64,000 nt of DNA from an uncultured Clostridia bacterium (GCA_949538735.1 CATGLK010000006.1:19228-83227); one strand, 5' to 3'. Numbered from the stretch's first letter, positions 36,143 through 36,617 are shown. Notes: generated from the sequence alone by a model not told the origin. Numbers and translations: made by a program.

Positions 36143-36301
36143 CTATGATTTATTATTAAAAAACTTTAATAGCATATTTAATACCCTCGGAATACTTTTT
36201 TCTTGTTTTATTTCATTGTTAATTGTGATACTTAGGTTTGTTATTTTTAGTCTTTCAGCTTGTATTCCTCCAAATTTTGATTTTGTTTTTTTATTGTTCA
36301 T
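36143..36301 (-). CDS. Unannotated 52-aa basic ORF between mini-array and cas6
   Basis: AAGGAG RBS 8 nt before ATG; MNNKKTKSKFGGIQAERLKITNLSITINNEIKQEKSIPRVLNMLLKFFNNKS. Confidence 0.5.
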   Translation of the reverse strand: MNNKKTKSKFGGIQAERLKITNLSITINNEIKQEKSIPRVLNMLLKFFNNKS

Positions 36302-36370
36302 TCCGTTTTCTCCTTGTATTTTATTGTATTTATTTTAAAAATCTTTATGTATTGAATTTTAATTTAATAT

Positions 36371-36459
36371 GATAAAATACATTGCATGTATAGGTATAAC
36401 ATATGCATATTATAAACGTCTTTCTGTATGTTTAAATATACTTTTGTATTCGAGTCTAC
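36371..36459 (-). CRISPR. CRISPR-like regulatory mini-array (CreA/CreR-like)
   Basis: Two degenerate 30-nt repeats (36459-36430 ending ATTTAAAC; 36400-36371), 29-nt spacer, TTGAAA-17-TATAAT promoter directly upstream, spacer matches 36352-36331 behind a TCA PAM. Confidence 0.75.
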
Positions 36460-36617
36460 GTTGTTCATTATACGTTCTTACTTTTGGATTTTCAAGTGTC
36501 TTTTTACTTCACTATCTCTAAACATATAACTTTATTATAATTATATTCATTAGTGTTATAGCATAAAAATAACTGTGTACTTTTTTAAGTTTACACAGTT
36601 ATTCTATTTTTAAATTC

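Follow-up and report, generated by a model that had tools for sequence, protein, structure and literature searches.

A putative creR/creA-type regulatory mini-CRISPR upstream of cas6 in the type I-B locus of an uncultured Clostridia bacterium

Introduction

Does the intergenic region in front of a type I-B cas6 gene encode a guide with which the system represses its own effector genes, or does it hold a guarded toxin, the remnant of an old array, or an ordinary promoter region? This question is raised by a 64,000-nt stretch of DNA (hereafter the window) from an uncultured Clostridia bacterium (GCA_949538735.1 CATGLK010000006.1:19228-83227), whose genome is 1.5 Mb in size with 29.6% GC. The element in question lies within the region 36143-36617 of the window, beside a complete CRISPR-Cas locus, and a preliminary description had read it as a CreA/CreR-like guide RNA aimed at the DNA ahead of a new 52-amino acid (aa) open reading frame (ORF) and the cas operon. 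The analysis presented here supports the hypothesis that the element belongs to the neighbouring type I-B system as a regulatory mini-CRISPR of the creR/creA type and is a working repressor, a reading to which we assign a probability of roughly 0.6.

CreR autorepression and Cascade-repressed toxins, including CrePA, are both already known kinds of system. Autorepression guided by CreR/CreA has been demonstrated by experiment in types I-B (Haloarcula), I-E and V-A, and the pattern of handle conservation in these elements has been defined (10.1101/2023.03.10.532045). A survey of mini-arrays put the share of I-B loci with repeat-like sequences near cas6 at 27% and that of bacterial I-B loci with mini-arrays at ~19%; the spacers of the predicted mini-arrays are shortened and mismatched at every sixth position, the interval between mini-array and cas gene contains cargo, which is often a toxin-antitoxin pair, and relatives occur without the cargo or without both (10.1101/2023.03.03.530964). 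I-B mini-arrays upstream of cas6 were predicted there in Clostridium perfringens and Fusobacterium pseudoperiodonticum (10.1101/2023.03.03.530964). As for guarded toxins, CreTA of Haloarcula hispanica consists of the RNA toxin CreT and CreA (10.1101/2023.03.03.530964, 10.1101/2023.03.10.532045, PMC12737573, PMC9458426), and CrePA is described as a KilA-N protein toxin under the control of CreA (review PMC12737573, section 3.3). A literature search on I-B CreR and on mini-arrays at cas6 brought to notice, within the accessible parts of these sources, no experimental clostridial I-B case.

Results

Anatomy of the mini-array

The gap of 516 nt between cas6 and the upstream gene, which encodes a Na+:dicarboxylate symporter, contains a promoter, a mini-array, a target and a 52-aa ORF (ORF52). 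Each of these was found at the position given in the preliminary description:

36495-36467, minus strand: mini-array promoter TTGAAA-17-TATAAT, 11/12 consensus matches
36460-36430, minus strand: psiR1, degenerate repeat and putative source of the 5' handle, 22/31 columns matching the repeat with one gap
36429-36401, minus strand: psiS, pseudo-spacer (ATACAG...CATAT), 29 nt against the canonical 34-37 nt
36400-36371, minus strand: psiR2, degenerate repeat and putative source of the 3' handle and hairpin, 20/30 matches ungapped
36355-36353, minus strand: protospacer-adjacent motif (PAM) 5'-TCA-3', given in the sense of the CRISPR RNA (crRNA)
36352-36324, minus strand: target (protospacer), of which positions 1-22 (36352-36331) pair 18/22
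36301-36143, minus strand: ORF52, 52 aa, basic, with an AAGGAG ribosome-binding site (RBS) at 36315-36310

The 30-nt repeat of the system is defined by its two arrays, A1 and A2, and reads GTTAGACTAGAACATATAATGTATTTAAAT in the crRNA sense, with the 3' end ATTTAAAT; all 33 canonical spacers in these arrays (33/33) are 34-37 nt long. The two pseudo-repeats are spaced 60 nt apart, ~270-360 nt upstream of cas6 and on the same strand as A1 and A2, so that two degenerate repeats flank a spacer-like sequence beside cas in array orientation, a feature which is weak when taken alone. The parts of these repeats that are kept include the 5' handle of psiR1, the last 8 nt of which (ATTTAAAC) match the repeat end ATTTAAAT at 7/8, and the 3'-handle and hairpin part of psiR2, the first 22 nt of which match the repeat at 15/22. 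In psiR1, the 4-bp hairpin that precedes the handle is kept by changes on both sides (ACAU/AUGU to AUAC/GUAU), and psiR2 folds into a 6-bp hairpin at the position of the repeat's own hairpin; the fold energies of the pseudo-repeats are small and not significant against shuffled sequences.

Another repeat-like element was seen in a related locus (L029, genome G131), where two ~31-nt copies with palindromic ends lie ~75 nt apart, ~100-250 nt upstream of cas6. This element starts with TGAACTTTAA, the 10-mer at positions 3-12 of the G131 CRISPR repeat, and may be a standalone repeat-like unit.

Pairing of the pseudo-spacer with a PAM-flanked target

Spacer and target share a strand and are 77 nt apart. 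Alignment of psiS with this site reproduced the pairing of 18/22 put forward earlier, with mismatches at positions 6, 12, 13 and 18; further mismatches follow at 23, 24, 25, 27 and 29, leaving only 2/7 matches over the last seven nominal positions. In type I Cascades, the Cas7 backbone flips out every sixth base. This arrangement is stated for type I-F1 (10.1101/2023.03.03.530964), and we infer that it extends to I-B. Outside positions 6, 12 and 18, the pairing is 18/19, and in the seed (positions 1-5 and 7-11) psiS and target are identical at 10/10.

When both strands of the 1.5-Mb genome were compared with psiS, the target was the sole site with at least 17/19 effective matches, the next best value being 16 (11 sites). 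By raw matches, four other sites reach 18/22, of which 0/4 carry TCA, and the perfect 10-nt seed occurs at 33 other sites, of which only 1 has TCA. That single site, on contig C8, was considered as a second target; its pairing is 16/25 and its position is within a 253-aa ORF, and we took it as chance. Local direct near-repeats of the quality seen between psiS and the target occur at ~1 in 1000 positions. The similarity between psiS and the target starts exactly at the psiR1/psiS junction, with 1/8 matches in the preceding 8 nt, which fits a guide-target pair and not a plain duplication. Taken together, these comparisons argue that the spacer-target match is more than chance.

TCA had been named as a known clostridial I-B PAM in the preliminary description, and here it was derived from the protospacers of the system itself. 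Array A1 was searched in 338 genus genomes, followed by a blast of all 33 spacers, and protospacers were obtained for 7 spacers (31-35 identities, spacer length 34-36 nt) in 17 rows. The 5' flank was TCA in 7/17 rows (s04, s17, s21, s23 and s24), corresponding to 5/7 spacers, and the remaining flanks were TTA (4 rows, s17), AAA (4 rows, s08), TTG (1 row, A2_s01) and TCT (1 row, s24, with a 31/35 match). Since TCA flanks protospacers of 5/7 spacers, the target of the mini-array carries the real PAM of the system. The complementarity of psiS to the target is partial and seed-first. A comparison of the array spacers with a phage collection gave no usable protospacer.

One array spacer, A1_s08 (window ~26223), matches its own genome at 31/35 (G000 contig C4, 68001-68028) and three other genus genomes at 31-35/35, in each case with the flank AAA instead of TCA (4/4). 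The matched sequence may come from a prophage or a conserved gene and, lacking a PAM, may avoid being targeted.

Promoter and terminators around the element

The transcription start predicted for the mini-array promoter is at about the first base of psiR1. Genome-wide, 335 of 3.0 million positions match the promoter consensus at 11/12 or better, which suggests that the placement of this promoter ahead of psiR1 is more than chance. Two further signals are located in the gap:

36562-36605, minus strand: intrinsic terminator of the symporter gene, a hairpin of -15.3 kcal/mol followed by a T-run
36145-36118, minus strand: promoter-like site TAGCCA-16-TATAAT between ORF52 and cas6, 10/12, a consensus match only

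Judged by its sequence, the symporter terminator insulates the mini-array from transcription upstream. No terminator-like hairpin was found in the interval between psiR2 and ORF52 or in that between ORF52 and cas6. The end of the target lies 9-16 nt ahead of the RBS of ORF52, which is the first gene of the operon.

The leaders of A1 (26717-26876) and A2 (31808-31971), both on the minus strand, are homologous to each other (0/300 shuffles score as high) and have in common the boxes TTTTCCAA(G/A)TGG and TCACTTGGAAA. A sequence flanking the mini-array promoter, CACTTGAAAA, resembles the CACTTGGAAA box found in both CRISPR leaders. Homology of the whole region upstream of the mini-array to these leaders was rejected, as it did not exceed the chance level (128-130/300 shuffles score as high).

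ORF52, a probable small protein of unfamiliar type

The start codon of ORF52 was found 29 nt past the paired segment, in agreement with the ~30 nt given earlier, and the ORF lies between the mini-array and cas6. At this composition, the chance of 52 open codons is 0.016. The codon log-likelihood ratio of ORF52 is +17, compared with a mean of 25 (standard deviation 8) for real genes and -1 (standard deviation 18) for spurious ORFs; this score places it at the 15th percentile among real gene segments, and 19.5% of spurious antisense ORFs score higher. A collection of 5.8 billion proteins contained only three ORF52 clusters, of which one has the query sequence itself and the others are 89% and 80% identical to it. 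Among the variants, one of 54 aa shows four substitutions together with a two-codon insertion in frame, and one of 46 aa is frameshifted after residue 36.

ORF52 found no match in Pfam (0 families), PHROGs or PADLOC, and HMMER against 1.84 billion representatives returned only its own cluster. An AlphaFold2 model based on three sequences only predicts helices at residues 9-32 and 37-49 forming a helical hairpin (mean predicted local distance difference test score 81), for which Foldseek against the PDB gave nothing at E <= 0.001 and the ESM Atlas gave no usable match. The protein is rich in positive charge (11 Lys+Arg vs 3 Glu). The possibility that it is a ribbon-helix-helix regulator was discarded, as the model has two helices and no strand. 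No homologous locus was found in 61 relatives or in collections of genome and metagenome contigs. With respect to known Cre toxins, codons 2-37 are all common (5.6-80 per 1000) and only CCG, the codon at position 38, falls below 3 per 1000, so that the run of rare codons right after the start that marks the CreT design is lacking despite a strong Shine-Dalgarno sequence; the KilA-N domain that characterizes CreP is likewise missing (Pfam, 0 families). ORF52 is probably a real small protein and an orphan, and a toxin role is possible but unsupported.

In another locus (L035, genome G217), a ~75-aa ORF of unrelated sequence lies directly upstream of cas6 in the place of ORF52, which hints that the slot upstream of cas6 collects small genes.

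The adjacent type I-B system

Downstream of the element, the minus strand carries a type I-B CRISPR-Cas locus that is complete (cas6b, cas8b, cas7, cas5, cas3, cas4, cas1, cas2), in which the effector genes cas6, cas8b, cas7 and cas5 are all present according to Pfam and PADLOC. Its features and the upstream neighbour are as follows:

37868-36618, minus strand: Na+:dicarboxylate symporter gene, upstream neighbour (Pfam SDF, 3.6e-91)
36101-35415, minus strand: cas6 (PADLOC Cas6b, 3.5e-71)
35399-34698 and 34744-33653, minus strand: cas8b, two overlapping ORFs (PADLOC Cas8b profile positions 1-223 and 217-557)
33650-32712, minus strand: cas7 (Pfam Cas7)
32697-31972, minus strand: cas5 (Pfam Cas5)
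31251-31807, minus strand: array A2, in the operon between cas5 and cas3, 9 repeats
25040-26716, minus strand: main CRISPR array A1, 26 repeats

Observations that weigh against a working repressor

Against these results stand a number of observations that lower our confidence in regulation by the element. The likeness of psiR1 and psiR2 to the repeat is near background, as 1354 genome sites have 20-24 gapped matches and windows with 17-20/30 are common upstream of other cas6 genes. Among these repeat-like sites there are 20 pairs spaced 50-80 nt apart, of which psiR1/psiR2 is the top pair (22+21), by a single point, and the repeat likeness alone appears only weakly above chance. Another of these pairs comes from the distal end of array A1, which is eroded, and hence real decayed repeats score in the same range.

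Other points concern expression. A consensus scan finds no promoter over the target, where only -10-like hexamers are present, and a second promoter-like site (TTTAAA-16-TATAAT, 36436-36409) lies inside psiR1/psiS. The promoter-like site at 36145-36118 could, from its sequence, drive the cas genes independently of Cascade and the target. In three RNA-labelled runs, the contigs cover only the symporter gene of a relative and not the element; these runs contain 5-7% of the sampled words, all from that relative's symporter gene, and speak neither for nor against expression of the element. In addition, cas8b is divided into ORFs of 233 aa and 363 aa, which are in different frames and have 47 nt in common. 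The two closest relatives, L037 (G206) and L038 (G208), at ~73% aa identity, have cas8b divided likewise and again across frames, and in six more distant loci (~30% identity) both parts of cas8b are in one frame; a conserved split or a programmed frameshift seems likelier than a recent pseudogene.

The remaining points come from relatives. Homologues of cas6 are present in 16/300 other genus genomes, three of them close (77-80% aa identity). In two of these (G206 and G021), the synteny of symporter and cas6 is preserved around a different intergenic region of ~280 nt that lacks ORF52 and the mini-array; in the third (G208), the contig ends 75 nt upstream of cas6. A contig from run X15 (probably DNA) that is 97% identical in cas6 and the symporter gene lacks the module as well and has 146 unrelated letters in place of 36114-36620 (507 nt), with breakpoints exactly at the symporter stop codon and the cas6 ribosome-binding site. 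The module DNA had no counterpart in 337 other genus genomes, in which the search gave an 80% match to the symporter terminator and otherwise nothing but brief chance matches, AT-rich or RBS-like, next to genes of no relation. Neither the position nor the pairing is conserved in the related loci. A scan for mini-arrays upstream of cas6 in 15/16 related loci, five of them scanned with repeats borrowed from other loci, found background windows of 17-20/30 and no convincing pair. With regard to phage-borne copies, an IUPAC pattern search in IMG/VR returned 51 stretches, the best 47/90 identical and all attributable to chance, and blastn against 50,697 phage records gave no match to the module.

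The stretch 35900-36700 was recovered in identical form (100% of sampled words) in 14 runs (13 labelled DNA and one of unstated kind) from 9 studies, many of which may be the source of this assembly. Since the module is missing from the X15 relative and from the 337 genomes, the element is strain-specific in the collections searched, and the conservation of pairing or ORF on which the preliminary description would have relied was not borne out. Patchiness of genuine mini-arrays has been reported in the literature, and this lack of conservation therefore lowers the support for membership in that class without excluding it. Five of the 16 other cas6 loci (L022, L023, L030, L032 and L033, from both identity tiers) carry a direct repeat, CGACAA-N4-CGACAA, just upstream of the -10 box and 75-103 nt upstream of cas6, which is absent in the window; this repeat looks like the operator of a protein regulator, that is, a different control of the same operon.

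Discussion

A model for negative feedback on Cascade

The comparisons of spacer, target and PAM indicate that the observation itself is real and well above chance. If the element is a working repressor, its own strong promoter would transcribe psiR1-psiS-psiR2, and Cas6 would cut 8 nt before the end of each pseudo-repeat, yielding a short crRNA-like product in which the 29-nt guide stands between the 5' handle AUUUAAAC and a 3' hairpin. Cascade carrying this guide would then recognise the TCA PAM at 36355, 45 nt downstream of the start of psiR2 (36400), and the guide would pair over positions 1-22 with its PAM-distal end unpaired, the crRNA pairing with the template strand. Because the guide is short and its PAM-distal end unpaired, Cascade would bind without licensing Cas3. 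Bound Cascade (36355-36324) may serve as a roadblock or as a promoter occluder; the room between psiR2 and the ORF52 RBS (36370-36316) is 55 nt, which is too short for a promoter that does not overlap the target, and Cascade would therefore either occlude the promoter or block read-through. Promoter occlusion and the blocking of read-through from the mini-array promoter are equally possible.

In either event the transcription of ORF52 would be lowered and, since no terminator follows ORF52, that of cas6-cas8b-cas7-cas5 would be lowered too, provided that the promoter-like site at 36145-36118 is not strong. The mini-array lies upstream of the block and would stay expressed, which gives the arrangement the logic of negative feedback: Cascade would limit its own operon, and the repression would be relieved when normal crRNAs (from A1 and A2) or anti-CRISPR proteins draw Cascade off.

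Alternative explanations

The locus could have come about without any CRISPR ancestry, as tandem sigma-A promoters (36495-36467 and 36436-36409) followed by an AT-rich 5' leader, in which case the likeness to the repeat and the match to the target would be accidents of low-complexity DNA. This explanation accommodates the two promoter-like sites, one of which lies inside psiR1/psiS, the -10-like boxes TATAAT and TAAAAT in psiS and the target, the high background of repeat-like windows, and the strong promoter ~200 nt ahead of cas6 that is seen in the closest relatives as well. However, chance would have to place the genome's top repeat-like pair within ~360 nt of cas6 and in array orientation, to give psiS the genome's only 18/19 partner 77 nt away, and to endow that very partner with the verified PAM and with a similarity that starts at the repeat/spacer junction, and we regard this as very improbable. 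More can be said for a decaying relic, namely an old self-targeting spacer or array stump which is no longer processed or loaded and whose match to the target reflects the origin of the spacer. The pseudo-repeats are only 65-71% like the repeat, a likeness common in an AT-rich genome, the repeats at the distal end of A1 are equally degenerate, and the module is strain-specific. Yet the decay would have been uneven, since the handle (7/8), the pre-handle hairpin, the seed (10/10) and the PAM were kept while the rest drifted, and a near-consensus promoter stands exactly in front of psiR1. A live self-target would moreover be lethal, and a short guide with PAM-distal mismatches is the pattern of working regulators (10.1101/2023.03.03.530964). 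The identical sequence is also present in full in 14 runs from 9 studies. On balance, a relic seems to us a doubtful explanation.

The other alternatives turn on ORF52. Were the module a toxin guarded by Cascade, after the manner of CrePA/CreTA, then Cascade and the mini-array RNA would silence a small toxic protein, ORF52, with guarding as the main function; the loss or inhibition of Cascade would release the toxin, leading to addiction to the cas genes or to the death of cells infected by phages with anti-CRISPR proteins (Acr), and such a role is compatible with autorepression. ORF52 follows directly upon the target, has a strong RBS, is probably coding and is an orphan, as many small toxins are, and one of its natural variants is frameshifted, as toxins can be. 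There are precedents in that an enrichment of toxin-antitoxin genes has been reported for the interval from mini-array to cas (10.1101/2023.03.03.530964) and that CrePA places a protein toxin under CreA (PMC12737573). ORF52, however, bears no sign of toxicity, with no KilA-N or other domain, no PADLOC, PHROG or fold match and no transmembrane-like stretch, and the CreT design is absent from it. It is apparently co-transcribed with cas6, and its product would consequently rise with Cascade and not in the absence of Cascade. The relative that is 97% identical, furthermore, keeps its cas genes without ORF52 and the mini-array. A guarded toxin is, in our judgement, unlikely. Of the preliminary description, then, the CreA/CreR-like reading is borne out as far as sequence anatomy goes (own promoter, handle, hairpin, short spacer, target in cis, PAM), and its branch of a new protein toxin drew no positive evidence from ORF52, which gave no match to a family or fold, has no homologue outside its own cluster and lacks the CreT design.

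A broader form of this idea would make ORF52 a new small effector wired to Cascade, either a CreP-like toxin without KilA-N or a regulator or accessory of I-B systems, on a mobile cassette of 0.5 kb. As a toxin it would fire when anti-CRISPRs or the loss of cas genes free the promoter, and as an accessory it would be made when Cascade runs short; mini-array, target and ORF would swap in and out upstream of cas6 between near-identical strains. We give this proposal little chance.

Relation to known mini-arrays and Cre systems

As a regulatory mini-CRISPR, the element compares most readily with four published systems. It resembles the mini-arrays of Shmakov et al. (10.1101/2023.03.03.530964), by their description, in having two repeat-like units and a short spacer upstream of cas6, a target between mini-array and cas6 flanked by the PAM of the subtype, a seed next to the better-kept repeat end, and a patchy presence among relatives; unlike these, it has no detectable homology to a phage-borne copy, and an orphan 52-aa ORF stands between the target and cas6. 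With CreR, it has in common a degenerate mini-CRISPR in which the psiR1 5' handle and the 3'-handle part of psiR2 are kept (10.1101/2023.03.10.532045), and partial complementarity to a PAM-flanked site upstream of the cas operon, from which autorepression that senses the crRNA load would be expected. It differs from CreR in that the pairing covers 18/19 effective positions over 22 nt, compared with 15 consecutive nt in the Salmonella example, in that the target precedes a non-cas ORF, and in that the element is known from its sequence alone. Among the toxin modules, CreTA is comparable in that its crRNA-like antitoxin guides I-B Cascade to a neighbouring promoter, that of a small gene which has a strong RBS, as the mini-array RNA may do at ORF52; however, the toxin there, CreT, is an RNA whose rare codons come right behind the start, whereas ORF52 has 52 ordinary codons of which only codon 38 is rare. 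CrePA similarly has a protein-coding gene behind a CreA-type target, but ORF52 is far smaller and lacks KilA-N or any other recognisable domain.

Implications

Read as a working repressor, this element would be a clear case of a CRISPR system that regulates itself through a crRNA-like RNA, in a mouse-gut lineage that is low in GC and uncultured, with a pairing that is unusually long (18/19 effective positions). The presence and absence of the module in strains that are 97% identical (a 507-nt cassette vs a 146-nt alternative) constitute a natural pair for the cost and the gain of such a module. ORF52, between the target and cas6, is the sole part that could be new. If it is a Cascade-gated effector, it would widen the range of genes known to be wired to the occupancy of a CRISPR effector; otherwise, the locus would represent a well-documented instance of a published mechanism.

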